NCBI GenBank assembly: GCA_016204335.1
Contig: JACQKU010000014.1
Location: 4,988-68,987, forward strand
Length of the DNA: 64,000 nucleotides
Reading direction: 5' to 3'
Origin: Candidatus Liptonbacteria bacterium
Lineage (GTDB): Bacteria > Patescibacteriota > Minisyncoccia > UBA6257 > 2-01-FULL-56-20
In this document: positions 14,804-59,857 of the stretch, piece by piece
Position numbering within the stretch: position 1 is the first letter of the stretch
Layout: the number at the start of each line of letters is the position of its first letter
Notes under the pieces: model-generated
The model's input: only the letters and a program-made list of their open reading frames with translations
Told to the model about the DNA's origin: nothing
Databases searched by the model: none
Program-made: the position numbers and the translations under genes

Positions 14804-15922
14804 ATGAGGTTATACGAATTCGAAGGCAAGCGGCTTTTTGAGAAATACGGCATTCCGGTGCCGAAGAGCGTGTTGCTGGAAAAATCCGGAAAAGTTTCCG
14901 GCATTAAGTTGCCGGTCGTACTTAAAGCCCAGGTTTTGTCCGGTGAACGGAAAAGCGCGGGCGGTATTCTTTTCCCGAAAAATAAATCGGAACTTTCACA
15001 CGGGCTCAAAAAACTTTTCGCGGCGCATATCCGCGGCGAACCCGTTCAAAAAATTTTAGTTGAGGGGCGTATCTCGGCTTCGCGCGAATATTATCTTTCG
15101 TTGAGTTACGACACCGACACGCGCGGTCCGGTTTTGGCTTTTTCTTCCCGCGGCGGCTCGCGCATAGCCATCGCGCTGAAGGCGAATGTCGCGCCGCTCG
15201 ATATTCTTCTCGGCGCAAAACCGTTTTTAATCCGCGAAGCGCTGTCAAAAGGAAAAGTTCCGTCCGAAGATATCAACGGCCTCGCGAAGGTCATTATAAA
15301 TTTATGGAAGCTTTTTGTTTCCGAATACGCGCTCGTCGCCGAAATCAATCCGTTGTTTCGGACTCCGAGCGGAGAATTTATCGCGGGAGACGCGAAAGTC
15401 ATTCTTGACGACGAAAAATTGAACCCCGGCGAGCGGAGATTCATCGAACTCGGCGGCGACATCGCGATTTTGGCGTCCGGCGGCGGCGCGTCGCTTTTGA
15501 ACATTGACGCGCTTCTCCAGTATAAAGGGAAGCCCGCGAATTACACCGAATACTCCGGCAACCCTCCGGCTGACGTGGTAAAAGCGCTAACACAGCGCGT
15601 GCTCGGCAGGCCCGGGCTCAAAGGCGCGTGGGTAATCGGCGGCACCGCGAATTTCACGGACATTTACGAAACACTGAAAGGATTTATCGAAGGACTCCGG
15701 CAGGTAAAACCGAAACCGGCATATCCGATTGTTATCCGGCGCGACGGCCCCAATCAGGAAAAAGCGTTCGCGATGCTCCGCGAAGTAGCCAAAAAAGAGG
15801 GGTACGACTTCCACCTTTTTAATTCGAAAACCTCGATGGCGGAGTCGGCGAAATTGATGGTGAAATATGCGTACCATGATAAAATCAAAATTCAAACTGC
15901 AAATATCAAAATGAAAGAGTAA
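14804..15922 (+). CDS. succinyl-CoA synthetase beta / ATP-citrate lyase small-subunit-like ATP-grasp protein
   Basis: MRLYEFEGKRLFEKYGIPVP (SucC N-terminus), LVAEINPL, GGGASLL. The ORF-track start 14747 is probably an overcall. TATAAT at 14791-14796 precedes the ATG at 14804. Confidence 0.75.
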   Translation: MRLYEFEGKRLFEKYGIPVPKSVLLEKSGKVSGIKLPVVLKAQVLSGERKSAGGILFPKNKSELSHGLKKLFAAHIRGEPVQKILVEGRISASREYYLSLSYDTDTRGPVLAFSSRGGSRIAIALKANVAPLDILLGAKPFLIREALSKGKVPSEDINGLAKVIINLWKLFVSEYALVAEINPLFRTPSGEFIAGDAKVILDDEKLNPGERRFIELGGDIAILASGGGASLLNIDALLQYKGKPANYTEYSGNPPADVVKALTQRVLGRPGLKGAWVIGGTANFTDIYETLKGFIEGLRQVKPKPAYPIVIRRDGPNQEKAFAMLREVAKKEGYDFHLFNSKTSMAESAKLMVKYAYHDKIKIQTANIKMKE

Positions 15923-16001
15923 AATGCAAAAAGCCTTTAACAATTCTTTTTTAATTTCTTCTTTTTCATTTTGCATTTTGAGATTTGATTTTTGAATTTT
16001 C
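15881..16001 (+). repeat. MITE-like long hairpin family 1 (AAAATCAAAATTCAAACTGCAAA..ATGCAAAAA / TTTTTCATTTTGCATTTTGAGATTTGATTTTTGAATTTT), copy 1
   Basis: ~40-bp inverted arms; left arm encodes the last residues and stop of the upstream gene; right arm ends 2 nt before the sucD-like ATG; near-identical copy at 59735-59857. Confidence 0.8.
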
Positions 16002-16002
16002 C

Positions 16003-16914
16003 ATGAGCATTTTAGTCGACAAAAAAACGCGCGTTTTGATTCAGGGCATCACCGGGCATGAGGGCGCGCGGGCGTGCAACGAGATGCTTTCGTACGGGAC
16101 AAAAGTGCTCGCGGGCGTGACGCCGGGAAAAGGCGGACAGAAAATATCCGGCGTGCCTGTGTATGACACTGTGCGTCAGGCGCTCGCAAAACACCGGAGT
16201 ATAAACACCTCGCTCATCGCTGTTCCCGCGGCGGCGGTCAAAGACGCGGCAATGGAAGCGATATTCGCGGGAATTCCGTTAGTGAATATTCTCGCCGAGC
16301 ACGTGCCGACTTTGGATTGCGCGGAGATTGTCGCGCGGGCTCGCGCGAAAGGCACGATACTCGTCGGCCCTTCATCTGTCGGCGTGATTTCTCCAAAAGA
16401 GAAAGTGAAAATCGGAAGCATCGGGAGTTCGCTCGTTCGAAATGTGTTCACGCCCGGTTCGGTCGGCGTTGTTTCAAAAAGCGGAGGAATGACCGCGGAA
16501 ATCGCGGTGACGCTCACGAACGCAGGCATAGGCCAGAGCACGGTGCTCGGCATCGGCGGCGACCAAATTATCGGATTCGATTTCGTGGACGCGCTCAAAT
16601 TGTTTGGGAAGGATCCGGAAACGAAAGCAGTGATACTGTTCGGTGAAGTTGGCGGCACATACGAAGAGCAGGCGGCGGAGTTTATCCGAAAAGAAAAATT
16701 CAAGAAGCCGGTTGTCGCGGTGGTGGCGGGAAAATTTACCGCGCGCCTTCCGCAAGGCACCGTGTTGGGACATGCCGGCGCGATTGTCGCGAAAGGAAAA
16801 GGCGGATACGATTCGAAAGTGCGGGCTTTCAAAAAAGCGGGCGTGCCGGTTGCGGCTACTCTTGATGAAATTCCGTGGTTGCTTCGGCAGCTACTTCGTG
16901 GAAGAATGAAGTAA
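16003..16914 (+). CDS. succinyl-CoA synthetase alpha-like CoA-binding subunit
   Basis: MSILVDKKTRVLIQGITGHEGA, phosphohistidine loop GHAGAIV, 303 aa. Confidence 0.85.
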   Translation: MSILVDKKTRVLIQGITGHEGARACNEMLSYGTKVLAGVTPGKGGQKISGVPVYDTVRQALAKHRSINTSLIAVPAAAVKDAAMEAIFAGIPLVNILAEHVPTLDCAEIVARARAKGTILVGPSSVGVISPKEKVKIGSIGSSLVRNVFTPGSVGVVSKSGGMTAEIAVTLTNAGIGQSTVLGIGGDQIIGFDFVDALKLFGKDPETKAVILFGEVGGTYEEQAAEFIRKEKFKKPVVAVVAGKFTARLPQGTVLGHAGAIVAKGKGGYDSKVRAFKKAGVPVAATLDEIPWLLRQLLRGRMK

Positions 16915-17030
16915 GTCAATGCTACGCGGGAAATCAACGAGAAAAATGTTTTTTTGGGAATCAAGTTATCTTCTCTAATTCGCGCGAATAGGAGAATAAA
17001 AAGAAAAACAAATAAACAACAAATAAACAA

Positions 17031-17756
17031 ATGAAGTGGAAAACGGCGATCAGTACACATAAAAACGGCGAGCTTTATATCCGAGGCGAGGCGTTGACCA
17101 AACTCATCGAAAAGCGCTCTTTTGCCGAGGCGATTTTTCTTGTTTTGAAAGGGACATTTCCGAATAAGCGCGAGAAGGAAATGTTCGACGCGATTCTTGT
17201 GGCTCCGATCGAGCACGGCGTTGAAGCGCCGTCCGCGTTTGTCGCGCGGACAGTCGCTTCCGTCGGCAATCCGATGAATGTCGCGCTAGCGGCTGGATTT
17301 CTCGCGACGGGGGACTGGCACGGCGGCGCAATCGAACAAGCGGCAAAAATGTTTCAGTCGGATAAAACACCGGCGGAGATTGTCTCCGGCGCGCTCGCGA
17401 AAAAAGAGCGCGTTTCCGGATTCGGACACAAAATATATAAAGAAGCCGACCCGCGCGCGGCGGCAATTTTTGCCAAGGCGAAAAAACTGAAATTCTACGG
17501 CAAATATGCCGGCCGCGCGATTGCAATCCAAAAAGAACTTGAAAAACAGTCCGGCAAAAAATTGCCGCTCAACATCGACGCCGCGATTGCCGCGGTAATT
17601 TCGGAGCTCGGATTCGACTGGCGTCTGGGAAAAGCGTTTTTCGCGCTTGGACGCCTACCTGGAATAATCGCGCACGCGCACGAGGAAATGGTGAACGAAA
17701 AGCCATACCGGCGTTTTGAGGAAGGCGATGTGGAGTATGTCGGCAAACCAATATAG
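17031..17756 (+). CDS. citrate synthase-like / citryl-CoA lyase-like protein (short, 241 aa)
   Basis: GFGHKIYKEADPRAA matches the citrate synthase family GHRVYK..DPR signature. Confidence 0.7.
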   Translation: MKWKTAISTHKNGELYIRGEALTKLIEKRSFAEAIFLVLKGTFPNKREKEMFDAILVAPIEHGVEAPSAFVARTVASVGNPMNVALAAGFLATGDWHGGAIEQAAKMFQSDKTPAEIVSGALAKKERVSGFGHKIYKEADPRAAAIFAKAKKLKFYGKYAGRAIAIQKELEKQSGKKLPLNIDAAIAAVISELGFDWRLGKAFFALGRLPGIIAHAHEEMVNEKPYRRFEEGDVEYVGKPI

Positions 17757-17853
17757 TTGTCATTGCGAGCGAAGTGAAGCAATCCAGATTGCCACGTCGC
17801 GGAGTTTATCCTGAGTAACGTCGAAGGACTCCTCGCAATGACGGATTAAAAAA

Positions 17854-18288
17854 ATGATCAAGATTCAGCAATTGAAAAAAGCGGATAAAGCGGCGGTGCG
17901 CGACCTCAATCATCTCTTGAAGCAGTTGCGTAAGAATCCTTCCGAACATAGCGGATCGCTTTTTGATCTTCGAAACATTGTCAGCGATAAAAAGATAGTA
18001 ATGATCGTCGCCCAAAACGGCAGGAACATTGTTGGTATGGCAACGCTCTATATCATCATTATGCTCGGAAAAACTGTTGGAACCGTCGAGGAAGTCGTGG
18101 TAGACAGCGCGTACAGGGGCAAAGGATTAGGGAAAAAGATACTTCAAATGCTTATTCGGGTTGCCCGCAAGAAAAAGGTTAAAAAGTTATATCTCACGAG
18201 CCGACCTTCGCGTGTTGCCGCCAATAAGCTTTACCAAAAACTCGGCTTCAAATTGAAAGAGACGAATCCTTATACGCTCCGGCTTTAA
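17854..18288 (+). CDS. GNAT family N-acetyltransferase
   Basis: VDSAYRGKGLGKKIL acetyl-CoA motif; 144 aa. Confidence 0.7.
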   Translation: MIKIQQLKKADKAAVRDLNHLLKQLRKNPSEHSGSLFDLRNIVSDKKIVMIVAQNGRNIVGMATLYIIIMLGKTVGTVEEVVVDSAYRGKGLGKKILQMLIRVARKKKVKKLYLTSRPSRVAANKLYQKLGFKLKETNPYTLRL

Positions 18289-18330
18289 TTGTTTGAGAGA
18301 CATACGATTTTTTGGTATAGTCAAACTATG

Positions 18331-18478
18331 CCAGGTAGTGAAAATGCGATTTAAGCAACCAAATTTTATATTATGCTATGCTATTATGAGTAAACAAAAT
18401 ATAAGCAAAGGTCATCGTTTCATCACCCAATCACGCAGTTACCATAAATAATGTTGCAATCGCATTTCTACTACCTGG
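18331..18478 (+). repeat. MITE-like element with termini CCAGGTAGTGAAAATGCGATT ... AATCGCATTTCTACTACCTGG
   Basis: 21-bp terminal inverted repeats; same termini type as the element at 26111-26181. Confidence 0.6.
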
Positions 18479-18479
18479 T

Positions 18480-18761
18480 ATGGACGCACTGATATTTTCC
18501 CAGACATTTTTCTATTTGGTGATTTCATTCGCGATACTTGTCCTCGGGATTTTGGCGGCGATTGTCGCGTATCATTTGATCGGTATCACGAAACGGCTGG
18601 AAGAAATTTCCGGCGACATCAGCGACACTTCCCGCGACGCGCGGGAAGGAATCAAAGATTTGCTCGCGGCGTTTTCCCGCATACCGTTCCTTTCGTTTTT
18701 TACGAAAAGGAAATCTAACGAACAGCGCAAAAAAGGTCGTGGGAAGTCAGTGTCAGAGTGA
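18480..18761 (+). CDS. hypothetical small membrane protein
   Basis: 93-aa ORF, N-terminal TM helix. Confidence 0.35.
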   Translation: MDALIFSQTFFYLVISFAILVLGILAAIVAYHLIGITKRLEEISGDISDTSRDAREGIKDLLAAFSRIPFLSFFTKRKSNEQRKKGRGKSVSE

Positions 18762-19104
18762 CAATAACGATGACAATAACACGATGAAAAATAATAAACG
18801 CGGAGGAAAACTTTTGGGAGGAGCGTTGGTGGGCGCGGCGTTGGGAGTCGCGGCTGGTCTTCTGCTCGCTCCGGAATCAGGCAAAAAACTTCGCGGAGAA
18901 GTCAAAAAGAAATCGGCGGAATTTTATGCGCATCTTTCTCCCAAATTGAAGAAAATGAAAAAAGTGGGGGAGAAGGAATACGCTCAGTTTGTGAAAAACG
19001 CGGCGAAGAATTACGGCAAAGCAAAATTTCTCTCAAGCCAACAGCAAAAAGTTCTTGTCGCCGAAGCCCAAAAAACCTGGAAACATTTGCAGAAGCATTT
19101 GTAA
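18739..19104 (+). CDS. YtxH-like (DUF948) protein; likely true start at 18784 (MKNNKRGG)
   Basis: LLGGALVGAALGVAAGLLLAPESGKKLR motif. Confidence 0.5.
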   Translation: MGSQCQSDNNDDNNTMKNNKRGGKLLGGALVGAALGVAAGLLLAPESGKKLRGEVKKKSAEFYAHLSPKLKKMKKVGEKEYAQFVKNAAKNYGKAKFLSSQQQKVLVAEAQKTWKHLQKHL

Positions 19105-19107
19105 GAA

Positions 19108-19896
19108 ATGCAAAAACTCATTGTTGCTAATTGGAAGATGAATCCAATCTCTGCGAAAGAGGCGTTTTCGCTTGCGAAGAAGATTGATGCGGGAATTCCG
19201 AAGAAAAAAAATATCGAAGTTGTTATCGCGCCGCCGTTTCCATACCTTGAATGTATCAAGTATCAAGTATCAAGCATCAAGTTGGGAGCGCAGGATGTAT
19301 TTTGGGAAGACAAGGGAGCATACACGGGCGAAGTGTCGCCGACGATGCTCAAAAATCTCGGCGCAGAGTATGTGATTGTCGGCCACTCGGAGCGGCGCCG
19401 CCTTCTAAATGAAACCGACGAGATGGTTAACAAAAAAGTTCAGGCGTCGATGAAAGCCGGTTTGAAAGTTATTTTGTGCGTCGGCGAACCCAAACGAGCG
19501 ACAAGAGACATGCGACAAGGAATAAAGGAAGCGAAAAGTTTTGTAAAACGACAATTGCAGAGAGATTTAAAAGGAATTTCCAAATCCCATGTCGCTAATC
19601 CCATGTCGCTTATTGTAGCTTACGAGCCGATATGGGCAATCAGCGCAGGCGGCGCCGGAAAACCGGACAAGCCCGAAGACGCCGCCGAAATGATACGATT
19701 TATTAAGCAATTCCTCACTACTCACTACTCATTACTCGCTACTCCTGTCTTGTACGGCGGCTCCGTAAATTCCTCAAACGTCCGGAATTTCCTGCAGTAT
19801 GAAGAAGTGGATGGCGCGCTGGTCGGTAGCGCGAGTTTAAAGCATCAAGAATTTAAAAAGATAATCGCCGCAGTTTCATCGGTTGCGTATTATTAA
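19108..19896 (+). CDS. tpiA: triosephosphate isomerase
   Basis: IVANWKMN, GHSERR, YGGSVN motifs; carries two heptamer tandem-repeat tracts in-frame. Confidence 0.9.
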   Translation: MQKLIVANWKMNPISAKEAFSLAKKIDAGIPKKKNIEVVIAPPFPYLECIKYQVSSIKLGAQDVFWEDKGAYTGEVSPTMLKNLGAEYVIVGHSERRRLLNETDEMVNKKVQASMKAGLKVILCVGEPKRATRDMRQGIKEAKSFVKRQLQRDLKGISKSHVANPMSLIVAYEPIWAISAGGAGKPDKPEDAAEMIRFIKQFLTTHYSLLATPVLYGGSVNSSNVRNFLQYEEVDGALVGSASLKHQEFKKIIAAVSSVAYY

Positions 19897-32776: not shown

Positions 32777-32778
32777 TG

Positions 32779-32863
32779 GCTACGAAATACGAAAAAGTAC
32801 GAATATACGAAATTGAAACAAACAAGATTTTCGTATATTCGTAAGAAATTCGTATTTCGTAGC
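32779..32863 (+). repeat. MITE-like hairpin family 2 (GCTACGAAATACGAA..TACGAATATACGAAA / TTTCGTATATTCGTA..TTCGTATTTCGTAGC)
   Basis: ~34-bp inverted arms; related copies at 37790-37852 and 63246-63332. Confidence 0.75.
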
Positions 32864-32877
32864 TGGGCGAAGCGACT

Positions 32878-36213: not shown

Positions 36214-36216
36214 TCA

Positions 36217-37772: not shown

Positions 37773-37858
37773 ATTGAGTAATCACTGATTATACAAATCC
37801 GCGCAAATATACGAAAATTTGTATATTACTTATTATTCGTATATTCGCGAATGCTCTT

Positions 37859-38983: not shown

Positions 38984-40347
38984 AACATTACAAGAATATC
39001 CTCCGGTATCAGATTCAGCCGAGAGAACGCATTACCACGTCATTCTGGGTTAAGCGGCCGGGCGCGGAGATGATAATGGAGGAAAAAGATTTTTCGTTCG
39101 ATTACAAAGGCGCGTTTTCAAAAGAACTCTTCGTTGACGCATACGAGCGGCTCTTGCTTGATGCCATTTCAGGCAATCAAACGCTTTTTGTAAGCACCGA
39201 AGAAATCGCGGCAAGCTGGAAATTTATCGACCCGATTTCAAGAGCGTGGAAGAAAAATTCCGCATCACTTCTTTCGTACGCAAAAAAAACACTCCCCATT
39301 TCCGAAGAACTGGATGGTTCGGGCTTGTCCCGAAAAGAAATCGGTTTGATAGGTCTTGGAAAAATGGGGAAAAATATGGCGCTCCGGCTCTTGGAAAAAA
39401 GATGGAATGTGATTGCGTACGATGTAAGCCCGGAAGCACGCCAGGAAATTATCTTGAAAGGCGGGGTTGCCACAAATAGTATTCCTGAACTGGTTGGACA
39501 GTTGGAATTACCCCGAACAATTTGGTTAATGGTACCTGCGGGCAAAATTCTCGACGAAGTAATTTTCGGCACTTCGGCAAAGCTCAGTGCCGACCCTGAG
39601 CAGCGTCGAAGGGTCGGTTCGAACGGCCTCGCCGCGCTTCTTGCAAAAGGCGACATGATAATAGACGGCGGCAATTCGCTTTACGAGGATTCAATCAGGC
39701 GCGCGAAAAAGTTGAAAAAATTCGGCATCAGTTTTCTCGACGCCGGTGTCTCGGGAGGTCCCGGAGGGGCGAGGAACGGCGCGTGCCTGATGGTGGGCGG
39801 AGAGAAATCGGCGTACGACAAGCGCGAAGATTTATTCCGCGACCTCGCGGTTTCGGACGGATATGAGTATGTCGGAAAAGCGGGAGCCGGCCATTTCGTG
39901 AAAATGATTCATAACGGCATCGAGTACGGAATGATGCAGGCGATTGCGGAAGGCTTCGATGTGCTTCGCACCGCGGACTTACGCGGACTGAACCCTTCGA
40001 CACGGCTCAGGGCAAGCGCGGACAAACGCGGAAAATTGAAATATAAATTTAACCTCAAGAAAATAGCCGGCATTTATAATCGTGGGAGCGTGATTGAATC
40101 GCGGCTCGTCGGCTGGCTCAAGAACGCGTTTGAGGAATACGGCGAAAACCTCGAAAGAATTTCGGGCTCTGTCGGCCATACCGGAGAAGGGGAATGGACG
40201 GTCAAAACCGCGAAAAAACTCGGCGTGCCCGCCAAGGTAATCGAAGACGCGTTCAAATTCCGCGTGCAGTCCGCGAAAAAACCGAGTTATGTTGGAAAAA
40301 TTCTCTCGGCATTGCGAAATCAGTTCGGAGGACATAAGGCAAAGTAA
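38941..40347 (+). CDS. gnd: G6PD C-terminal segment fused in-frame to 6-phosphogluconate dehydrogenase (short Gnd type)
   Basis: ILRYQIQPRE..FVDAYERLLLDAISGNQTLFV (G6PD C-terminus) runs without a stop into IGLIGLGKMGKNMALRL Rossmann start of 6PGDH and GAGHFVKMIHNGIEYG. Confidence 0.75.
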   Translation: MSVSRRGTRDKGQVKHYKNILRYQIQPRERITTSFWVKRPGAEMIMEEKDFSFDYKGAFSKELFVDAYERLLLDAISGNQTLFVSTEEIAASWKFIDPISRAWKKNSASLLSYAKKTLPISEELDGSGLSRKEIGLIGLGKMGKNMALRLLEKRWNVIAYDVSPEARQEIILKGGVATNSIPELVGQLELPRTIWLMVPAGKILDEVIFGTSAKLSADPEQRRRVGSNGLAALLAKGDMIIDGGNSLYEDSIRRAKKLKKFGISFLDAGVSGGPGGARNGACLMVGGEKSAYDKREDLFRDLAVSDGYEYVGKAGAGHFVKMIHNGIEYGMMQAIAEGFDVLRTADLRGLNPSTRLRASADKRGKLKYKFNLKKIAGIYNRGSVIESRLVGWLKNAFEEYGENLERISGSVGHTGEGEWTVKTAKKLGVPAKVIEDAFKFRVQSAKKPSYVGKILSALRNQFGGHKAK

Positions 40348-40398
40348 ATTCAAAAATCAAATATCAAAATGCAAAATGACAATGCAAAATTAAAAAAT
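40346..40398 (+). repeat. MITE family 1 left-arm-only copy (AAATTCAAAAATCAAATATCAAAATGCAAAATGACAATGCAAAATTAAAAAATG)
   Basis: Overlaps and supplies the N-terminal codons of ORF 40369. Confidence 0.6.
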
Positions 40399-40914
40399 GA
40401 TTTTCTAGAAAACGTAATCGCGACCAACTCTATCTTTGCGGCTTTTGGAAGAGCTAATATTTATTCACCTATTGCGAATAAAAAAGATAAAGAAAAACTC
40501 AAACACTTTATAAAAGCGAGATTAAAGAAATACTTGGACGAATATGATGGTGGAAATATCTCTGAAAAAGAACATATCTCGAATATTCAGAAGTTGGCAG
40601 ATGAGACATCCACATATTTTAGAGATATTTTGTTAGATGGTAGACTTCGTATAGGCACAGCACAAAAACTTTTAAATCTCTATCTTAAATATATCTGGGT
40701 TTTGGGCTGGATGAAAAAACCTCCACCCCATTGTCCTTTCGATTCGAGAGTAATTGGAAAATTAGGGAAGAATGTATCTATCAAATGTAAAAAATTTACA
40801 GAAACAGATGATGAAAACTGTTATTATGAATGGGTAAATGCTGTGCGAAATATCGCTGGAGAAAAAATCGCAGAATGGGAATTGCGCTTTTTTAATGAAA
40901 CGAACAGAGTTTAA
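40369..40914 (+). CDS. hypothetical protein, AT-rich (GC ~33%)
   Basis: 181-aa ORF, no recognisable motif; strongly deviant composition. Confidence 0.45.
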   Translation: MQNDNAKLKNDFLENVIATNSIFAAFGRANIYSPIANKKDKEKLKHFIKARLKKYLDEYDGGNISEKEHISNIQKLADETSTYFRDILLDGRLRIGTAQKLLNLYLKYIWVLGWMKKPPPHCPFDSRVIGKLGKNVSIKCKKFTETDDENCYYEWVNAVRNIAGEKIAEWELRFFNETNRV

Positions 40915-40926: not shown

Positions 40927-41631
40927 ATGAAAACCAAAGAAGGATTGTGGAAATTGAGTCCGAGCGGGTTGTACGGCTTTGAAGAATGCCGGACGTGTTT
41001 TTGGCTCGAGCACCATCATACAAGAGCTCCCGGCCTCCCGTTTGTTCTGAACATGGCGATGGACAGCGTTTTGAAATCGCGCTACGACGCTTATCGGGAG
41101 AAGGAAGAATTGCCGCCGGAAATTCAATCGCTCGGAAACGAAGGAATAACTCTTTTTCGCGACATTGAAACGCTGAATAAGTGGCGCGGCAGTACGATGC
41201 ACCTTCGAGTAGTAAACGAAAAAGTCGGATATGAAATCGGAGGGAAACTCGACGAGGTTCTTATCGAAAAAAACGGTCGTCTCATACCGACCGATTTCAA
41301 ATCGTCCGGCTACGCCCCGAAAGAAGACAAACAGAAATATTACGTGTCCCAGCTTACTGCATACGCGTTTATGTTTCAGAAGCACGAATTGAATCCGTCC
41401 GACCGCGCGATTCTCCTCCATTATTTCCTGAAAGACCCGAGAAATCCGTCTCTGCAGGTGGAATTCATAAGCCATATCGACCCCGTCCGGCTGGATTTGC
41501 CGGGATTCGAGAATAAACTTGAAGACATCGTCGGTTTATTGAACGGTCCGTACCCCGGAGACAATCTCGCGTGCGAAAAATGTTTATATTACGCGGGGCG
41601 GAATGAAAAGAGCAATCCCGATAATCGCTAA
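40927..41631 (+). CDS. PD-(D/E)xK nuclease, Cas4/RecB-like with four Cys
   Basis: CRTC near N-terminus, GKLDEV..IPTDFKSS (D..DxK), QLTAY (QxxxY), C-terminal CEKC. Confidence 0.55.
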   Translation: MKTKEGLWKLSPSGLYGFEECRTCFWLEHHHTRAPGLPFVLNMAMDSVLKSRYDAYREKEELPPEIQSLGNEGITLFRDIETLNKWRGSTMHLRVVNEKVGYEIGGKLDEVLIEKNGRLIPTDFKSSGYAPKEDKQKYYVSQLTAYAFMFQKHELNPSDRAILLHYFLKDPRNPSLQVEFISHIDPVRLDLPGFENKLEDIVGLLNGPYPGDNLACEKCLYYAGRNEKSNPDNR

Positions 41632-48457: not shown

Positions 48458-48499
48458 TTACAACATTCTGATATTCTGCAGAATATTAGAATGTTGTAA
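48456..48499 (+). promoter_or_regulatory. palindromic operator-like site TTACAACATTCTGATATTCTGCAGAATATTAGAATGTTGTAA upstream of arsR
   Basis: Near-perfect 36-44-bp palindrome; second copy at 48789-48824 overlapping the arsR stop. Confidence 0.5.
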
Positions 48500-48532
48500 T
48501 GTGATATACTTACTTACGATACAATCGATACA

Positions 48533-48799
48533 ATGAAAACCTCAAAGCAACTTGAACGGTATTTTAAGGGTGCGGCCAATCATTGGCGTATTTCCGTTTT
48601 GTTTCTTATTGAGAAAAACGAAGGAATTACTGTTCAGGGAATTACTTCAGCACTCGGCGGAAATTTCAAAACTATCTCCCAACATACGCGAGCATTGGTG
48701 CAGGCTGGCCTTTTGAATAAAAAGTATCGCGGCCAGGAAGTTATGCATTCGCTCTCTCCTTATGGAAAATCATTCGTCCGTTTCATGAAAACATTCTAA
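48533..48799 (+). CDS. ArsR/SmtB family winged-helix transcriptional regulator
   Basis: ISVLFLIEKNEGITVQGITSALGGNFKTISQHTRALVQAGLL. Confidence 0.6.
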   Translation: MKTSKQLERYFKGAANHWRISVLFLIEKNEGITVQGITSALGGNFKTISQHTRALVQAGLLNKKYRGQEVMHSLSPYGKSFVRFMKTF

Positions 48800-48824
48800 T
48801 ATTCTGCAGAATATCAGAATGTTT
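48789..48824 (+). promoter_or_regulatory. second copy of palindrome AAACATTCTAATATTCTGCAGAATATCAGAATGTTT
   Basis: See 48456-48499. Confidence 0.5.
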
Positions 48825-48856
48825 TATGTAAAGTGGCTTTTAGTTTAAGGATTTTT

Positions 48857-52919: not shown

Positions 52920-52949
52920 CCGGCCGCTATGCTATAGCATAGCGGCCGG
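52920..52949 (+). repeat. 30-bp perfect palindrome CCGGCCGCTATGCTATAGCATAGCGGCCGG
   Basis: Core GCTATGCTATAGCATAGC shared with 53044-53079 and 57643-57666. Confidence 0.8.
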
Positions 52950-53043
52950 AAATGTCGGAGCGAGAGGCAGGTTTCATAGATTTTTTCAGCAACGGAAACC
53001 GGTGTCTTTTTTGGAGAAGCTTTCGCAAGTCCAACCGGCTTGG

Positions 53044-53079
53044 CCTTCTGCCGCTATGCTATAGCATAGCGGCAGAAGG
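53044..53079 (+). repeat. 36-bp perfect palindrome CCTTCTGCCGCTATGCTATAGCATAGCGGCAGAAGG
   Basis: Same core, 125 bp from the previous copy. Confidence 0.8.
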
Positions 53080-53127
53080 CATTTTACTGCCAGTAATACT
53101 TATACAAACGGGGACCTCACGCGAAGT

Positions 53128-54048: not shown

Positions 54049-54174
54049 ATCTCATTTTTTATTCCAGTAGCCGTCTTCTCTGCGGAGGAGATTTTCGGTT
54101 CGAGAGGGGCCGCCTAATCTTATCCAATGCGGAGCCCTTGCATTCCCGTTAATCTATCCTGTATAATTCCTGCC

Positions 54175-55269: not shown

Positions 55270-55308
55270 ATTTCACTTTTTTTGTCAGATAATTTATTCT
55301 TAGCTTGC

Positions 55309-55328
55309 GCCGGACTAGCTCATTGGTA
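55309..55328 (+). repeat. 20-nt duplicate of the tRNA-Phe 5' end (GCCGGACTAGCTCATTGGTA)
   Basis: Identical to 55626-55645. Confidence 0.75.
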
Positions 55329-55389
55329 CCTGCCTGCCGGCAGGCAGGGAGCGCAATCCTGGAATAGAAAATGGGTTCCTATCTTGTGC

Positions 55390-55635
55390 ATGGAATATTT
55401 TGTTTATATAATTCGAAGCGGTAAGGATAACAGTAATTACACTGGTTTGACTGCGAATTTAGAACGAAGAGTTGCTGAACATAACAAAAGTGATACGAAA
55501 ACCACTCGTTCTAAAAAGCCATGGAGGTTAATATACTTTGAAAAGTACTCATCACGGATTGAAGCAAGAAAACGAGAAAAATATTTAAAAAGCGGCACTG
55601 GACGTGAACTAAGGAAACAACTACTGCCGGACTAG
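55390..55635 (+). CDS. GIY-YIG nuclease family protein (homing-endonuclease-like), AT-rich
   Basis: YFVYIIRSGKDNSNYTGLTANLERRVAEHN GIY-YIG motif; stop TAG lies inside the tRNA-Phe 5' end. Confidence 0.65.
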   Translation: MEYFVYIIRSGKDNSNYTGLTANLERRVAEHNKSDTKTTRSKKPWRLIYFEKYSSRIEARKREKYLKSGTGRELRKQLLPD

Positions 55636-55697
55636 CTCATTGGTAGAGCGCTACCCTGAAGAGGTAGGCGTACCCAGTTCGATTCTGGGGTCCGGCA
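55626..55697 (+). tRNA. tRNA-Phe (anticodon GAA)
   Basis: GCCGGAC-TA-GCTC-ATTGGTA-GAGC-G-CTACC-CTGAAGA-GGTAG-GCGT-ACCCAG-TTCGATT-CTGGG-GTCCGGC-A. Confidence 0.8.
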
Positions 55698-55975
55698 CAT
55701 ATTAGATTTTGTTCGCGCAATGCGCGCTACAAAATCTTCCCTGCCTGCCGGTAGGCGGGTATCCCGCCGCCGGCGGGACTGGGAAAATTTTTTCTGCTCA
55801 CTGGTGGAGCGAAAAGAATTTTCCTGCTTCCGAAACTGTGCAAAACTTATTTTGCTTTTTAGCGAAATAAATTTATTATTCGTATAATACTTCAGTATTG
55901 ATTTTTTTAGGCGATTCAGAATTGATTGTCCCTTTGGGGGAATAAAAGTTTCTCCGAGTTTCTCCAAACCGGGCA

Positions 55976-56239
55976 ATGAAGCCCAAAGAAAGGAAGGAGT
56001 ACCTTGACATGAAAAAGGGAATCCGAGAGTGGGAGTGTCCCGAGAAGTGCGGAAAACCCAGTAGCAACTGTAAGCATTACAACCTCCAATGGATGAATCA
56101 AGTTGACCCATTCCAATATTGTGGGGGTTGTGGGGTCAAGAGGCGAGCTTCAAGTCTTAAGAGAAGAAGCGACGGCAAAGATGTCTGCTCAGTGTGCTTT
56201 CGGGGAGGTCTGCTCTATCCGAGAAGAACGAGACCGTAG
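55976..56239 (+). CDS. hypothetical cysteine-rich small protein
   Basis: CPEKCG, CKHY, CGGCG, CSVC clusters; 87 aa. Confidence 0.3.
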   Translation: MKPKERKEYLDMKKGIREWECPEKCGKPSSNCKHYNLQWMNQVDPFQYCGGCGVKRRASSLKRRSDGKDVCSVCFRGGLLYPRRTRP

Positions 56240-56347
56240 TCCACGCCGCCATGGGAAACCATGAGCGGTGTGTGTATTTTAAAAGGGTATTTAACCGAAA
56301 CTTCGCGGACTAAAATCTTTTTGATAATTTGTGATACAATTTAATCG

Positions 56348-57355
56348 ATGAAACGAAAAAATGTCGTGACAATCGGCGGTGGCACGGGAAATTTTACGGT
56401 CCTGACGGCTCTAAAAAAATATCCGTTCAATTTGAACGCAATAGTGTCTATGGCGGACGACGGAGGCTCGAATGCAATGCTTCGCGACGAACTTGGCGTG
56501 CTCCCGCCGAGCGACATCTCGCAGTGCCTTGTGGCGCTTTCCGCTTCCGAAAAATGGATGCGGGAACTTATGAATTTCAAATTTCCGGGCGGCAGATTGC
56601 GCGGCCATCGCGTCGGCAATCTTTTTCTTTCTGCCCTTGAAATAATGAGCGGCAGTTTTGACGCGGCCGTGGAAAGGGTTTCGGAAATTCTCCGCATTGA
56701 AGGAAGGGTTATTCCCGTCACGCTCGAAAAAGTAAGATTGGCGGCGTATCTGAAAAACGGAACAATAATTCGCGGAGAGGACGGGATGGACGAAAAAATA
56801 TACGCCGCCGGCGCCGCCAATCTTAAAAAAATTTCTTTCCAGTCAAGAGCCCGGGCGAATCCGAAGGCGCTCCAAGCCATTCGGCATGCTGATTTTATCG
56901 TGATAGGCCCGGGGGACGTGTACACGAGCCTCGTACCGAATTTTCTTGTTTCCGGAATTCCGGACGCGATACGAAAAAGCCGGGCGAAGAAAATCTACAT
57001 CTGCAACCTGATGTCTAAAGCGGGACGCGCGGAAAAACTCGGCGTCGCCGATTTTGTGAACACGGTCGAATCGTATCTCGGCGCAAAATTTGATTACGTT
57101 GTTTACAATAACAGTCGGCCGCCGCCATCCTTGCTTGAAAAATATACTCGCAAAGGTGAGTCGTTGGTGAGATGGCATGGCGTTTCCGATTCTGACGCAT
57201 ATGGCAAGCGTTACATCGGCAGCGACCTCATAAACAGAACCGCTCCAAAACAGATTAAAGGAGACCTTTTGCAAAAGAGCAGGAGCTTAATCCGCCACGA
57301 CCCTTTGTGGCTCGGAAAACTGCTCGCGCGAGTTATTTCCTCCGGCCGAGAATGA
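56348..57355 (+). CDS. yvcK: gluconeogenesis factor / YvcK (UPF0052, CofD-like) family protein
   Basis: VVTIGGGTGNFTVLTAL, LPPSDISQCL. Confidence 0.8.
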   Translation: MKRKNVVTIGGGTGNFTVLTALKKYPFNLNAIVSMADDGGSNAMLRDELGVLPPSDISQCLVALSASEKWMRELMNFKFPGGRLRGHRVGNLFLSALEIMSGSFDAAVERVSEILRIEGRVIPVTLEKVRLAAYLKNGTIIRGEDGMDEKIYAAGAANLKKISFQSRARANPKALQAIRHADFIVIGPGDVYTSLVPNFLVSGIPDAIRKSRAKKIYICNLMSKAGRAEKLGVADFVNTVESYLGAKFDYVVYNNSRPPPSLLEKYTRKGESLVRWHGVSDSDAYGKRYIGSDLINRTAPKQIKGDLLQKSRSLIRHDPLWLGKLLARVISSGRE

Positions 57356-57397
57356 TCCCCACACTAAACGAGCACTGAGATTTTCACAAAAAGCTTT

Positions 57398-58156
57398 ATG
57401 AGAGCAAGTTTCAAATCCTTAAGCACGCGGTATAAATTTTCAAATCAACGTTATGGTGCTCGTTATAGTGTGGGGATAGATGAGGTGGGGCGGGGGGCTT
57501 TGGCCGGCCCGGTGACCGTTGCCGTGGCATGCATCCCGGACGATTTGCGTATCGAGAATCAGGGCTGGGGAAATTTGAAGGATTCAAAAAAACTTTCTCC
57601 GGCGCAAAGAAAGAAATGGTTTGCTTATTTCAGAAACCAGCCCGCGCTATGCTATAGCATAGCGCGCGTGTACCCGCGAGGCGTAGAGCGGTTGAATATT
57701 TCAAACGCCGCGAACCGAGCGGCTACGAAAGCGTGTAATAGGTTATTAAGGAAACGGGAAATTAAGAAATTCAGGATTTTTTTGGACGGCGGGCTTTATC
57801 TTGAAGATAAGAGCGAAAAAGTGCGAATACTTATGCGAAAGGGCGCGAAAAACTTTCGCAAAGATTCGCGTGTAAATTCGCGACATTTCGCTTCTACAAT
57901 TATCAAGGGCGACGAGAAAATCACCGCCATTGCAATCGCTTCCATCATCGCGAAAGTCGACAGGGACGGATATATGGAGCGGCTGTCGAAAAAACATCCA
58001 CGATACGGTTTCGAGATTCACAAGGGCTATGGGACAAAGAAACATTTTAGCGCGATCCGCCGGTACGGCCCCAGCAAAGCGCACAGGTTGACGTTTCTCT
58101 TAGATTTTCTTGAAAATCGTAAGCGGAAGCGAGACGATTTTTCTAGAAAATCTTAG
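57398..58156 (+). CDS. rnhB: ribonuclease HII
   Basis: GIDEVGRGALAGPV; contains perfect palindrome CGCGCTATGCTATAGCATAGCGCG at 57643-57666 within the coding sequence. Confidence 0.85.
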   Translation: MRASFKSLSTRYKFSNQRYGARYSVGIDEVGRGALAGPVTVAVACIPDDLRIENQGWGNLKDSKKLSPAQRKKWFAYFRNQPALCYSIARVYPRGVERLNISNAANRAATKACNRLLRKREIKKFRIFLDGGLYLEDKSEKVRILMRKGAKNFRKDSRVNSRHFASTIIKGDEKITAIAIASIIAKVDRDGYMERLSKKHPRYGFEIHKGYGTKKHFSAIRRYGPSKAHRLTFLLDFLENRKRKRDDFSRKS

Positions 58157-58298
58157 ACCCCGCCTCTTCTTTTATGTTGTTGGCTCTAGACTTGCATTGT
58201 CCGCTAAATTCTGTAAAATGGAATTATTAAATTAAAGCTCAGAAGAGGCGGGGTGCTCAATTTTGCAACCAATCGCTTCGCTCTTGGGCAAAATTGGC

Positions 58299-58448
58299 AT
58301 GGGAGGCGTACCAGTAAAACATCATAGCAAGGGAAAAGTCGGCAGGCGGAGGTCGCATATGGCTTTGAAAAAAGAGCGGGTTTTTGTTTGCAAGAACTGC
58401 GGCGGGCCGAAACTGCCGCACCGGATTTGCGGGCAGTGCAGGAAGTAA
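58299..58448 (+). CDS. rpmF: 50S ribosomal protein L32
   Basis: GGVPVKHHSKGKVGRRRSH..CKNCGGPKLPHRICGQC; ORF-track start 58263 uses a non-ATG start; coordinates may be off by 1. Confidence 0.7.
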   Translation: MGGVPVKHHSKGKVGRRRSHMALKKERVFVCKNCGGPKLPHRICGQCRK

Positions 58449-58598
58449 ATTCAAAAATCAAATATCAAAGTGCAAAATGAAAGCGTAAAATGAAAAAAGA
58501 ATTCAAGCACATTCTTTTTTCCGCCCGAGGCGGATCCGCCTTCGGCGGAGAATTTTGATTCGTCATTTTGATTTTTGACTTTTGCATTTTGTATTTTA
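58447..58598 (+). repeat. MITE family 1 degenerate copy with double CCGCC/GGCGG hairpin loop
   Basis: AAATTCAAAAATCAAATATCAAAGTGCAAAATGAAAGCG.. / ..TTTTGATTTTTGACTTTTGCATTTTGTATTTT; loop TCCGCCCGAGGCGGATCCGCCTTCGGCGGAG resembles 10362-10395. Confidence 0.6.
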
Positions 58599-58601
58599 TA
58601 T

Positions 58602-59030
58602 ATGTCTACCCGACACTTGGTAAGAAGCGTACTTTTGCAAACATTGTACGAATGGGATTTTTACGACAGAAAAAAGGATTTGACCGAGATTCTCGAGCGA
58701 AATCTCAATGAATTCGCGCCGGGCATCGACGAGCCGGAATTTGCCTGGCGGATTTTAAAAGGCCTAGCCGAGCATCTTTCGGAAATTGACGCGATTTTAG
58801 AGAAAGCCGCGCCCGAATGGCCGCTTAAAAAAATCGCGATGATAGACAGAAATATTCTGCGAATCGGACTTTATGAGCTTTTATACGCGGACCCGAACGA
58901 AGTTCCGGTGAAAGTCGCGATTAACGAAGCCGTGGAAATAGCCAAAAATTACGGCGGTCCCAACTCGGTCAAATTCATAAACGGCGTGCTCGGGACAGTG
59001 TATCGCCAAACGCACGGTAAACAGAAATAA
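58602..59030 (+). CDS. nusB: transcription antitermination factor NusB
   Basis: [20 protein letters not shown]. Confidence 0.85.
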
Positions 59031-59036
59031 TTAATT

Positions 59037-59735
59037 ATGAATAACGAAGCAGGCAATCTTGAAAATCTCGAAACCGTCATCGGCTTCAATTTCAAAAATA
59101 AAGATTTTCTCAAAGAGGCGCTGACGCACCGGTCGTATTTGAACGAAAATCCCGGCTGGCCGTTTTCCCACAACGAGCGTCTGGAATATCTCGGCGACGC
59201 GGTGCTTGAGCTTGTGGTGAGCGAAGCGCTTTTCAAAAAATTTCCCAAAGCGCCCGAGGGGCAGATGACAGTGCTTCGCGCCGCGCTCGTGAATTACCAA
59301 ATGCTCGGCAGCGTTGCCGCGGCTCTCCGCCTTGACGATTTTATTTTTATGTCGCGGGGGGAGCGCGCTGACACCTCAAAAGCGCGGGAAGTGATTCTCG
59401 CGAACGCCATTGAGTCGCTCATCGGCGCGATTTATCTTGATGCCGGACTTGAAGCCGTAGAGGGGTTTGTCGAACGATTTATTTTCACGCGTCTTCCGGA
59501 AATCCTCGAAACCAAAAGCTATAAGGACTCCAAAAGCGAACTTCAGGAAATAATCCAGGAAAAACTGAAAATAACGCCGACCTACGGAGTTCTTGGAGAA
59601 AGCGGGCCGGCGCACCAGCGGACATTCCGCATAGGGGTTTATTTCGGGAATGAATTGATTGCCGAAGGCGCGGGCGCTTCTAAGCAGGAAGCCGAAGTCG
59701 AAGCGGCGAAAAAAGCGCTGGAGAAGCGTAAATAA
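59037..59735 (+). CDS. rnc: ribonuclease III
   Basis: HRSYLNENPGWPFSHNERLEYLGDAVLELVVSEALF signature and C-terminal dsRBD. Confidence 0.9.
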   Translation: MNNEAGNLENLETVIGFNFKNKDFLKEALTHRSYLNENPGWPFSHNERLEYLGDAVLELVVSEALFKKFPKAPEGQMTVLRAALVNYQMLGSVAAALRLDDFIFMSRGERADTSKAREVILANAIESLIGAIYLDAGLEAVEGFVERFIFTRLPEILETKSYKDSKSELQEIIQEKLKITPTYGVLGESGPAHQRTFRIGVYFGNELIAEGAGASKQEAEVEAAKKALEKRK

Positions 59736-59857
59736 AATCAAAATTCAAACTGCAAACATCAAAATGAAAATGTAAAATGCAAAAAACCCTTAAAAATTCT
59801 TTTTTAATTTTTTCTTTTTCATTTTGCATTTTGAGATTTGATTTTTGAATTTTCCAT
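59735..59857 (+). repeat. MITE family 1 copy 4 (near-identical to 15881-16001)
   Basis: AAAATCAAAATTCAAACTGCAAACATCAAAATGAAAATGTAAAATGCAAAAAA .. TTTTTCATTTTGCATTTTGAGATTTGATTTTTGAATTTT, ending 2 nt before the smc ATG. Confidence 0.8.

Follow-up and report, generated by a model that had tools for sequence, protein, structure and literature searches.

Intervening sequences (IVSs) in bacterial rRNA genes have been known since 1990, and RNase III cleavage has been demonstrated for those of Salmonella, Leptospira, and Coxiella. The Coxiella IVS has a stem of terminal inverted repeats, an S23p open reading frame (ORF) in the loop and tandem heptamers in front of the ATG, and it is excised by RNase III (PMC4990558). 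The origin and mobility of IVSs and the role of the S23p gene are unexplained, and an old view holds that they are a "remnant of a transposition event" (PMC4990558). For bacteria of the candidate phyla radiation (CPR), Tsurumaki et al. 2024 report rRNA genes with short, uncharacterized insertions lacking an ORF and with 23S_rRNA_IVP ORFs (PMC11270868). RNase III also cuts the paired terminal repeats of the Correia elements (PMC10969869).

Here, we analyzed a 64-kb stretch of a Candidatus Liptonbacteria genome (the window), for which an earlier note had proposed four A/T-rich hairpin copies. All four were present where proposed and belong to one repeat family, family 1 (Table 1). A 34-nt core (AAATTCAAAAATCAAATMTCAAARTGCAAAATGA) occurred four times in the window with at most one mismatch, compared to no matches in 100 dinucleotide-preserving shuffles (expected number 0). 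Copies 1 and 2, said to be about 95% identical, matched at 119 of 126 positions (94.4%; 15879-16004 versus 59732-59857), and the left arms of copies 3 and 4 were 87% identical (40342-40402 versus 58443-58503). In copies 1 and 2, which by the element's own orientation are antisense to their flanking genes, it is the right arm that is well conserved. Copy 4 had been called degenerate but is not, with 33 of the 34 core positions conserved.

Table 1. Features of family 1 and its surroundings in the window
Feature	Position	Strand	Remarks
Copy 1, ORF-less hairpin	15880-16002	-	Between sucC-like and sucD-like genes; conserved 5' core 15966-15999 (-)
Element-encoded C-terminal tail of the sucC-like protein (predicted)	15881-15922	+	KIKIQTANIKMKE plus stop
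Copy 3, solo 5' arm	40346-40407	+	Begins within the stop codon of a 6PGD-like gene
Copy 3 cargo gene, ORF 40369	40369-40914	+	181-aa all-alpha protein family
Copy 4, hairpin	58447-58598	+	Between rpmF (L32) and nusB; sense to host genes
Copy 4 parts	core 58447-58480; 3' arm about 58552-58598	+	
Nested GC-rich double palindrome	58520-58552	.	TCCGCCCGAGGCGGATCCGCCTTCGGCGGAGAA; 33 nt, in the loop of copy 4
rnc	59037-59735	+	RNase III gene with dsRNA-binding domain; context only (putative hairpin-cutting enzyme)
Copy 2, ORF-less hairpin	59734-59857	-	Between rnc (RNase III) and smc; conserved 5' core 59819-59852 (-)
Core sites	15966-15999; 40346-40379; 58447-58480; 59819-59852	-; +; +; -	34-nt core

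Minimum free energy (MFE) folding gave hairpins of 110 to 150 nt for copies 1, 2, and 4 (-30.7, -27.5, and -47 kcal/mol, respectively), with z about -4.4 (-4.42, -4.36, and -4.56 in the same order); the solo arm of copy 3 gave no fold (z -0.11). As in the definition of an IVS, the window hairpins have complementary termini and a long stem-loop. Their arms, 46 to 58 nt long, are inverted repeats as had been claimed but not exact reverse complements, with a complementarity of only 72 to 76%. The stems are broken at intervals of roughly 7 nt, with uninterrupted pairing in copy 1 reaching about 13 bp at most, and the order of the heptamers is not the same in the two arms. The window and its relatives are also rich in spacer hairpins made of differing words of 7 to 8 nt. 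Among 13 hairpins built from A/T words, the sense strand did not fold better than the antisense strand (5 versus 8, p=0.89), and there is thus no G-U signature of RNA-level selection.

Long hairpins right after stop codons, with a U-rich 3' arm in the sense transcripts of copies 1 and 2, could be intrinsic terminators or attenuators that stop or modulate transcription between neighboring genes, as the earlier note had suggested. However, the A-U-rich arms lack a GC stem with a separate U tract, and a terminator consensus scan of the arms returned nothing above shuffles. The only match in the region (58535-58549) lies in the nested GC palindrome of copy 4, which does fit the consensus. Furthermore, element copies are seen in both orientations, a close relative lacks the element between sucC and sucD, and the identical element type is found inside 23S and 16S rRNA genes and between co-expressed partner genes (sucC/sucD in the window, carA/carB in L010, and rpsG/fusA in L004). 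Because efficient termination would be harmful at both kinds of site, we consider a terminator or attenuator role very unlikely.

Copy 1 lies at the end of the sucC-like ORF (14747/14804-15922), which has ATP-grasp_2 and Citrate_bind domains. The suggestion that it supplies the last codons and stop of this gene agreed with the sequence (about 13 codons, stop at 15920-15922). A comparison of C-termini showed that the sucC-like protein ends in ...AYHDKIKIQTANIKMKE before the stop, while its closest homologues end in ...AYKKK or ...AYRKR. Since a syntenic relative (L012/L013) carries no element between sucC and sucD, copy 1 is an insertion. It appears to have replaced the C-terminus of the sucC-like protein, the translated tail being an annotation-level prediction. 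CCATGA is present on both flanks of copy 1; at copy 2, CCAT is part of the repeat, and the empty site of L012 has diverged too much to fix the element ends.

Copy 2 directly adjoins the stop codon of rnc (59733-59735) and is followed by the ATG of smc at 59859. Two independent Logan assemblies reproduced nusB-rnc with the element at 99.8 to 100% identity, which rules out an assembly artifact; both of them end within its right arm. The opening bases of copy 4 are shared with the stop codon of rpmF (58446-58448), and nusB begins with an ATG at 58602. The palindrome nested in copy 4 was found again, inverted, at 10359-10391 and is a second small element, unrelated to family 1. Nucleotide identity to related genomes is 77 to 90% in the genes, but the rpmF-nusB and rnc-smc spacers share no homology with theirs. 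In L014, L015, and L017, homology ends at the rpmF stop codon and restarts exactly at the nusB start, and the rnc-smc junction in relatives holds unrelated hairpins or nothing (it is empty in L069 and L070).

These two junctions could be read as domesticated operon punctuation, with hairpins kept for RNase III processing or stability, uncoupling of cistrons, and possibly feedback on rnc. Copy 2 is immediately 3' of the RNase III gene, and each of five related genomes has an A/T-word hairpin at rnc-smc, four of them also at rpmF-nusB, with unrelated sequences. Yet in more distant relatives the rnc-smc spacers are 8 nt and 41 nt, copy 1 and several further hairpins are missing at orthologous junctions, and folding shows no strand asymmetry. 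The presence of hairpins rather follows hairpin-rich lineages, as expected of permissive sites with fast turnover, and we therefore judge such punctuation to be unlikely.

Copy 3 has no detectable 3' arm downstream, and its arm and the right one of copy 2 show 85% complementarity. A left arm at 40346-40398 had been said to supply the start of ORF 40369. Indeed, the ATG at 40369 and the first 9 to 10 codons lie in the arm, giving the arm-encoded N-terminus MQNDNAKLK, and the closest homologues have this arm-derived N-terminus of 9 to 10 codons in common with ORF 40369. The broader claim that the elements remodel gene ends thus held at both places, i.e., the apparently replaced sucC-like C-terminus and the arm-encoded start of ORF 40369. 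The NCBI record annotates an identical 181-aa protein for this ORF. Its family had no match in Pfam, NCBIfam, or PADLOC, and its structure weakly resembles that of helix-hairpin-helix DNA glycosylases. In other genomes (L065 and L067), a gene of this family is enclosed by both family-1 arms. Between ORF 40369 and L065, a pair that came from protein homology and not from a core match, identity was 66% across the gene and 87% within the arm, so that in this pair the arm is better conserved than the cargo.

Family 1 is not private to this genome but is spread across phyla; the earlier note had missed this spread as well as the probable identity of the family as an rRNA IVS element. An exact 30-mer of the core was found in nine GTDB reference genomes from six lineages (Saccharibacteria, Zambryskibacteria, Portnoybacteria, CPR2, Paceibacterota, and one Omnitrophota with 56% GC) and in 46 metagenome contigs; a search of viral contigs gave no matches. 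At least 11 of these copies are within 23S or 16S rRNA genes. Cores lie inside LSU matches in L005, L052, L022, L031, L032, L049, L039, and L021, L042 and L030 share 23S flanks, L025 is within an rRNA operon, and L053 lies in an SSU match. No rRNA was detected in the window (Rfam), where the copies are flanked by protein genes and so are not inside an rRNA helix. Intergenic copies folded less well than rRNA copies in a comparison of 21 family members (about -0.29 versus -0.47 kcal/mol per nt), and may simply be decaying.

The full-length form has the order arm-gene-arm, with inverted arms of about 40 to 55 nt made of CAAAATN heptamers. The gene is usually a PF05635 "23S rRNA intervening sequence protein", a four-helix-bundle protein that we take to be a relative of Avd; no catalytic activity is known for four-helix-bundle proteins. 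Its ATG and first 10 or so codons (MQND/E...) lie within the 5' arm. The PF05635/TIGR02436 ORFs in L003, L007, and L040 begin at the ATG of the core, and the inverse arm follows their stop codon. Other cargo is found between the same arms, namely a SET-domain gene (L025) and glyoxalase genes (L051 and L030). The apparent conservation of the core over the 55 scanned loci is inflated, since these were recruited by an exact core match. Compared to L003/L007, copies 1 and 2 are 82 to 84% identical over 72 nt (the core and 39 coding nt), followed by the 3' arm. They have kept the first 13 codons (MQNEKEEIKKELL) of the PF05635-type gene, which makes them internal-deletion derivatives; this remnant gives a weak HMM match, and no intact PF05635-like gene was found in the window.

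Could the palindromes instead have arisen locally rather than by transposition, through heptamer slippage and template switching (inverted duplication), so that the similarity between copies is convergence of low-complexity A-rich words? The many spacer hairpins of different words in the window and its relatives would fit such an origin, as would the different heptamer order of the arms and the rsmH-ftsL spacer, where the window has a full hairpin and a relative only right-arm-like words (GCTAATCA). For family 1, however, a 30-nt exact match over six lineages, including an Omnitrophota genome of 56% GC, cannot be convergent, copies share the first 13 codons of one specific gene, and copies 1 and 2 have 94% identity over 126 nt although their loci are unrelated. 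For this family, such an origin is scarcely credible and is refuted by the cross-lineage 30-mer and the shared codons; the other hairpin families may have arisen in this way.

The window copies are insertions. There are four of them here and none at the examined loci of related genomes (about 68 kb of four genomes; L012+L015, L014, and L017), and they occupy sites with few bases between stop and start codons; in other genomes, insertions are in rRNA helices. Family 1 has terminal inverted repeats, multiple copies, and presence/absence polymorphism, as MITE-like elements do. The earlier suggestion of mobile MITEs stands insofar as the inverted repeats are dispersed in multiple copies and polymorphic in their insertion (a syntenic relative has an empty sucC-sucD site), but full-length relatives encode a PF05635/TIGR02436 protein and no transposase, and there is no consistent target-site duplication. 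An ordinary MITE would be the non-autonomous derivative of an unseen insertion sequence, with a transposase recognizing AAATTCAAAAATC termini; this would also fit the recent near-identical copies and the patchy cross-phylum distribution. At the 55 loci, however, no ORF between the arms had a transposase domain (the types were PF05635, SET, glyoxalase, and the 181-aa family), and no RAYT (Y1 transposase) was seen among the flanked genes at the examined loci. In addition, rRNA copies continue the host helix by complementary rather than duplicated flanks (CTC/GAG in L005), and viral contigs had no matches. We find an ordinary MITE improbable.

The reading that we favor, and hold to be fairly probable, is that family 1 consists of selfish, CPR-wide, IVS-type palindromic elements tolerated in operon spacers, with RNase III as the presumed cutting enzyme. 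The complete form would be two inverted arms around a small gene, usually S23p / 23S_rRNA_IVP. Copies 1 and 2 would be deletion derivatives that keep the 5' core, 13 codons, and 3' arm, copy 4 a form consisting of a hairpin alone whose loop holds another small palindrome, and copy 3 a 5' arm still joined to a different cargo gene. On transcription of the operon or pre-rRNA, the arms would pair as a long A-U duplex, which RNase III (59037-59735) would cut by analogy with the IVSs of Salmonella, Leptospira, and Coxiella. Cutting would make the insertion tolerable in rRNA, and in operons would only split polycistronic mRNAs. The A/U-rich 3' arm could then serve as an ordinary leader of the downstream gene in a genome without Shine-Dalgarno (SD) motifs; an SD-like motif was found in only 2 of 60 genes. 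At copy 1, ribosomes ending sucC may melt the 5' strand of the transcribed hairpin and expose the sucD start. For some copies, the order could be reversed, with hairpins first and cargo inserted in the loop later. In our view, the copies are selfish passengers and not host regulators.

A bolder possibility, which we raise tentatively and regard as rather doubtful, is a cross-phylum mobile "hairpin cassette" in CPR and at least one Omnitrophota. Interchangeable small genes would sit between heptamer-repeat arms that provide both the start codon and the MQND... leader for translation without SD motifs, and the cassette would have colonized rRNA helices and operon spacers, with RNase III excision making insertion nearly silent. 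If so, this would be a class of mobile elements apart from introns and transposase-driven MITEs, with the arm core as recognition site and the four-helix-bundle protein as candidate mobility or maintenance factor. Returning to the favored reading of selfish IVS-type elements, one IVS family is found both within rRNA genes and dispersed between protein-coding genes, with presence/absence polymorphism, lineage-specific amplification, ORF-less deletion derivatives, and cargo swaps. With filled sites, empty sites, and a conserved 34-nt core in hand, the question of IVS mobility becomes testable. For annotation, the elements matter in that they change where genes of CPR genomes begin (MQND... leaders) and end (K/N/Q-rich tails) and are points at which assemblies break. 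The results also point to a possible role of RNase III in shaping operon transcripts where genomes lack SD-based initiation.

Compared to known systems, family 1 resembles the S23p-type 23S IVSs of Leptospira, Coxiella burnetii, Brucella, and Xanthomonas (PMC4990558) in its inverted-repeat stem with a PF05635 ORF in the loop, in variable-number tandem heptamers just before the ATG (CAAAATN in family 1 versus GACAGAT in Coxiella), and in a sporadic, horizontal-looking distribution. Unlike these IVSs, the window copies are in protein-operon spacers and not in rRNA, have lost the ORF (copies 1, 2, and 4) or carry another gene (copy 3), and add coding sequence to neighboring genes. The insertions of Tsurumaki et al. 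2024 (PMC11270868) share organisms and rRNA context with L005, L021, L022, and L039; the part of that paper considered here is concerned with rRNA genes, with no description of the hairpin family, non-rRNA copies, or alternative cargo. For the hairpin-only operon copies, the best functional analogue would be the Correia (nemis) elements of Neisseria, MITEs that are likewise intergenic inverted repeats of about 100 to 150 bp co-transcribed with their neighbors (PMC10969869). They differ in that their sequence is unrelated, that they make a TA duplication, and that they are regarded as derived from transposons, whereas the parent of family 1 has no transposase and no clear duplication. Rickettsia palindromic elements likewise join palindromic repeats to host protein-coding sequence, but they insert in-frame within genes, whereas family 1 is at gene boundaries and contributes only a C-terminal tail or N-terminal leader. 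Finally, REPINs (REP doublets) and RAYTs (PMC3116915) are also extragenic hairpins of about 100 nt with a single associated gene flanked by the repeats; there, the gene is a Y1 (HUH) transposase and the REPs are GC-rich, while the gene of family 1 encodes a four-helix-bundle protein.

All four hairpins described in the earlier note were found at their positions in the window, which comes from a Candidatus Liptonbacteria MAG (table), and the near-identity reported for two of them (~95%) held, with 15879-16004 and 59732-59857 being 94.4% identical over 126 nt. The left arms at 40342-40402 and 58443-58503 shared 87% identity. The best-conserved module was a 34-nt core of the 5' arm (AAATTCAAAAATCAAATMTCAAARTGCAAAATGA), which occurred four times in the window with at most one mismatch, and no match to it appeared in 100 shuffles. 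Folding gave long, imperfectly paired hairpins for copies 1, 2, and 4 (-27 to -47 kcal/mol, z ~-4.4), and copy 3 was one arm alone. The arms were built of tandem heptamers (CAAAATN / NATTTTG), and since the heptamer order was unlike between the two sides, pairing reached only 72-76%; the right arm was only partly complementary to the left, not its full reverse complement as the earlier note had it. Copy 2 was recovered in independent Logan assemblies, which break inside it, and is therefore not an assembly artefact; a look-up with the rnc protein of the window returned matching contigs of only ~1.1-1.3 kb, ending in repeats. Sliding-window folding judged by energy alone favoured GC-rich coding regions for the most part and was replaced by inverted-repeat and spacer-by-spacer analysis. 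No Rfam family was found for the family-1 hairpin; the sub-threshold matches were plant miRNA precursors only and were set aside as generic long A/U hairpins.

Positions of family-1 copies and of other hairpins and repeats in the window
Feature	Position	Core start (strand)	Flanking genes or context
Family 1, copy 1	15880-16002 (-)	15999 (-)	sucC-like gene (ATP-grasp_2 + Citrate_bind) / sucD-like gene
Family 1, copy 2	59734-59857 (-)	59852 (-)	rnc / SMC-like gene
Family 1, copy 3	40346-40407 (+)	40346 (+)	6PGD-like gene / ORF 40369
Family 1, copy 4	58447-58598 (+)	58447 (+)	rpmF / nusB
A/T word hairpin	4977-5114
A/T word hairpin	5547-5639
A/T word hairpin	6594-6674
A/T word hairpin	8672-8805
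A/T word hairpin	32777-32877
A/T word hairpin	37773-37858
A/T word hairpin	48458-48500
A/T word hairpin	48785-48826
A/T word hairpin	62610-62714
Conserved-sequence hairpin	5011-5117		upstream of mraZ
97-nt hairpin	17757-17853		citrate-synthase-like gene / acetyltransferase gene
24-nt palindrome family	52923-52946
24-nt palindrome family	53050-53073
24-nt palindrome family	57643-57666
24-nt palindrome family	~27430
24-nt palindrome family	~34680
66-nt repeat	region 10295-10410		adjoining tRNA-Glu(CUC)
66-nt repeat	region 11525-11615		adjoining tRNA-Glu(CUC)
46-nt repeat	10812-10857 / 12040-12085		near the tRNA-Glu(CUC) repeats
33-nt double palindrome	58520-58552		loop of copy 4
33-nt double palindrome, inverted	10359-10391		inside tRNA-like repeat

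In a search of one genome per GTDB species, an exact 30-nt core was present in nine genomes (four Saccharibacteria, Zambryskibacteria, Portnoybacteria, CPR2, Paceibacterota, and an Omnitrophota contig of 56% GC), and a scan of JGI metagenomes added 46 further contigs. Scanning viral contigs for the core gave 0 matches, which leaves a phage vector without evidence. The loci oriented by the core (L numbers, from other genomes or metagenome contigs) took three forms. The majority were hairpins only, their inverse arm following 40-130 nt downstream; in some, as in copy 4, the loop enclosed other small palindromes rich in GC; and several were arranged as arm-gene-arm. At L003, L007 (6567-6935), and L040, the enclosed ORF of 122-123 aa started at the ATG inside the core, was followed by the inverse arm after its stop codon, and belonged to PF05635, '23S rRNA-intervening sequence protein' / TIGR02436, the four-helix-bundle protein (S23p) of rRNA intervening sequences (IVSs). 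Family-1 arms also bracketed a SET-domain gene (L025), glyoxalase-family genes (L051, L030), and, at loci found by protein homology (L065, L067), the 181-aa family of ORF 40369. On the reverse strand of L003 (~1760-2200), a Saccharibacteria contig, a second four-helix-bundle gene, its ATG again inside the repeat, had arms of a different heptamer (AATGTCA / TATTTGA). The arm-gene-arm design is thus general and the word lineage-specific, and other word families may be arms of other IVS lineages.

When reverse-complemented, copies 1 and 2 aligned with L003 and L007 across the core and the first 39 coding nt (82-84% over 72 nt), after which the alignment jumped ~330 nt to the 3' arm. The remnant peptides were MQNEKEKIKKEFL in copy 2 and MQNEKEEIKKELL in copy 1, compared to MQNEKEKFKKDFI in L003. 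A four-helix-bundle HMM made from L003, L007, and L040 matched the copy 2 remnant weakly (E=0.023), and this search of the window found no intact four-helix-bundle gene, only the 13-codon remnant. Judged by these alignments, copies 1 and 2 derive from an S23p-bearing element by internal deletion, and both lie antisense to their host genes.

Copies 3 and 4 belong to a subtype (MQNDN.K.K) that occurs with other cargo or none. The proposal that the copy 3 arm supplies the start of ORF 40369, which matches NCBI protein HY433_02575 at 100% identity, was borne out at the level of gene prediction: its predicted N terminus is MQNDNAKLK, and the closest homologues (51-59% identity) likewise open with MQNDN/S.K. 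Distant ones have different starts, a few residues ahead of a conserved FLxNE. Both arms were present around the homologue in L065, for which the arm was 87% and the gene 66% identical in nucleotides (a pair obtained through protein homology, not the core); no right arm of copy 3 was found up to 900 nt downstream. The next gene (40927-41631) encodes a PD-(D/E)XK nuclease whose Cas4-like matches in PADLOC are weak (E ~1e-5); neither a CRISPR array nor further cas genes were noticed near it. Nested in the loop of copy 4 was a GC-rich double palindrome (TCCGCC-CGA-GGCGGA / TCCGCC-TTCG-GGCGGA) that recurred inverted in the window; nested GC-rich palindromes were common in hairpin loops elsewhere (L009, L011, L019, L045, L068), as if such loops act as landing sites for them.

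The core lay inside Rfam LSU matches at L005, L052, L022, L031, L032, L049, L039, and L021; L042 shared the 23S flanks of L005, and L030 those of L025; L053 was an SSU match. In L005, the A/T hairpin sat between complementary flanks (CTC/GAG), as if lengthening a 23S helix. The rRNA operons holding the elements of L025 and L039 also hold group I introns (Rfam RF00028), so one CPR rRNA gene can hold several kinds of insertion.

Most of the window shows synteny with the JGI contig Ga0209515_10000125 (L012, L015), the sucC-like and rnc proteins being 86% identical. The sucC-sucD junction of this contig reads TAA-CTAAAA-ATG, and this empty site indicates that copy 1 is an insertion. The suggested remodelling of gene ends was recovered when C termini were compared with those of relatives: the sucC-like protein, whose nearest named homologues are from Colwellbacteria and other Patescibacteria, ends in ...AYHDKIKIQTANIKMKE*, compared to ...AYKKK* or ...AYRKR* in its closest homologues, and its predicted element-encoded tail is DKIKIQTANIKMKE. 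Seven homologues (P0006, P0012, P0018, P0023, P0025, P0026, and P0039) had K/N/Q/R-rich C-terminal extensions of 10-25 residues after the conserved ...AY (e.g., KKTQSANRKVQNI, GKQRNPNNKIQNPNQTQNPKPKTF), which may be read-through into A-rich spacer hairpins. At rpmF-nusB, the genes were 77-90% identical in nucleotides to L014, L015, and L017, and homology ended at the rpmF stop and resumed exactly at the nusB ATG. Both there and at rnc-smc, each relative carried a hairpin of different words, and the rnc-smc junctions of L069 (8 nt) and L070 (41 nt) had no hairpin. With up to 7 mismatches allowed, no core was found in L012, L014, L015, and L017 (~68 kb), whereas the 64-kb window holds four with no more than 1 mismatch. 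These junction comparisons and core counts argue for gain or amplification of family 1 in the window lineage, at least when set against the examined loci, and for a turnover of spacer hairpins that far outpaces gene divergence. The idea of mobile MITEs was thus supported as regards insertion but not mechanism: neither a transposase nor a reproducible target-site duplication was found, CCATGA at copy 1 not being repeated elsewhere. The favoured sites were boundaries between stop and start codons and the tips of hairpins or helices. Integron attC sites were rejected by inspection alone, which showed neither an R''/R' core motif in the termini nor a gene for an integron integrase adjoining the copies.

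Family 1 is one among many A/T-rich word-repeat hairpins in the spacers of the window. These are made of repeated 7-8-nt words that differ per site, and orthologous junctions in relatives had hairpins of unrelated words or none. The hairpins at rsmH-ftsL and PBP-murF were absent from L012, where rsmH-ftsL had right-arm-like words only, which hints at local inverted duplication. Unlike other spacer hairpins, the one upstream of mraZ (GGTTAATTAGTAAATGGGTTATTTGG...CCAAATTACCCATTTACC) was kept in sequence in L012 (~1610-1710) and may serve the mraZ operon as a regulatory region. The GC-richer 97-nt hairpin (TTGTCATTGCGAGCGAAGTGAAGCAATCC...) was missing from the 41-nt L012 spacer and is thus another insertion-type element. 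A further repeated family consisted of perfect 24-nt GC-rich palindromes (GCCGCTATGCTATAGCATAGCGGC) and variants around TATGC...GCATA. The two 66-nt repeats, 92% identical, carry the anticodon arm sequence of tRNA-Glu(CUC); 11538-11608 scored 26.8 bits as a tRNA, compared to an Rfam cut-off of 29, and the other copy has the GC-rich double palindrome at the T-arm position. Both may be tRNA-Glu copies that have degenerated or been disrupted. The 46-nt repeat was 98% identical.

A role as terminators or attenuators, put forward in the earlier note, is unlikely, because family-1 elements sit inside rRNA genes, separate partner genes (sucC/sucD in the window, carA/carB in L010, and rpsG/fusA in L004), occur in both orientations, and have no GC stem with a U tract. 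In the arms, scans with promoter and terminator consensus sequences gave nothing above shuffles. By analogy with experimentally studied IVSs and Correia elements, we infer that the insertions are passively tolerated through RNA processing. Correia elements in mRNAs are cut by RNase III (PMC10969869). The family-1 arms would pair in the transcript, RNase III (59037-59735) would cut the duplex, and the freed A/U-rich 3' arm would make a normal-looking leader, given that an SD-like motif within 20 nt upstream was found for only 2 of 60 long ORFs. With leaders also short and A/U-rich, the genome appears to start translation without SD pairing. A ribosome that reached the stop codon at 15920-15922 within copy 1 would open the 5' strand of that hairpin over its full length. 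Passive tolerance is tempered by a G-U strand-asymmetry test for RNA-level selection, which gave no sense/antisense folding difference (n=13, p=0.89), and by the weaker pairing of intergenic copies (~-0.29 kcal/mol per nt) compared to rRNA copies (~-0.47), which fits relaxed constraint outside rRNA.

In the Coxiella IVS, terminal inverted repeats form a stem with the S23p ORF in the loop, excision is by RNase III, and tandem heptamers of variable number precede the ATG (PMC4990558). Family 1 shares this architecture, and by sequence and architecture it is a member of the S23p-type IVS elements. Short insertions lacking an ORF, and 23S_rRNA_IVP ORFs, have been reported from rRNA genes of CPR bacteria (PMC11270868). 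The available portion of PMC11270868 treats rRNA genes only, and the words 'hairpin', 'inverted repeat', and 'four helix' are absent from it. A literature search of incomplete coverage returned no account of hairpins of the IVS family scattered between protein-coding genes, of ORF-less IVS derivatives at sites other than rRNA, or of a single set of IVS arms exchanging its cargo. With the copies in the window, the long-standing question of where IVSs come from and how they move can be tested directly. These copies lie outside rRNA, although a position inside it defines an IVS, and behave like palindromic repeats of the Correia and Rickettsia palindromic element types.
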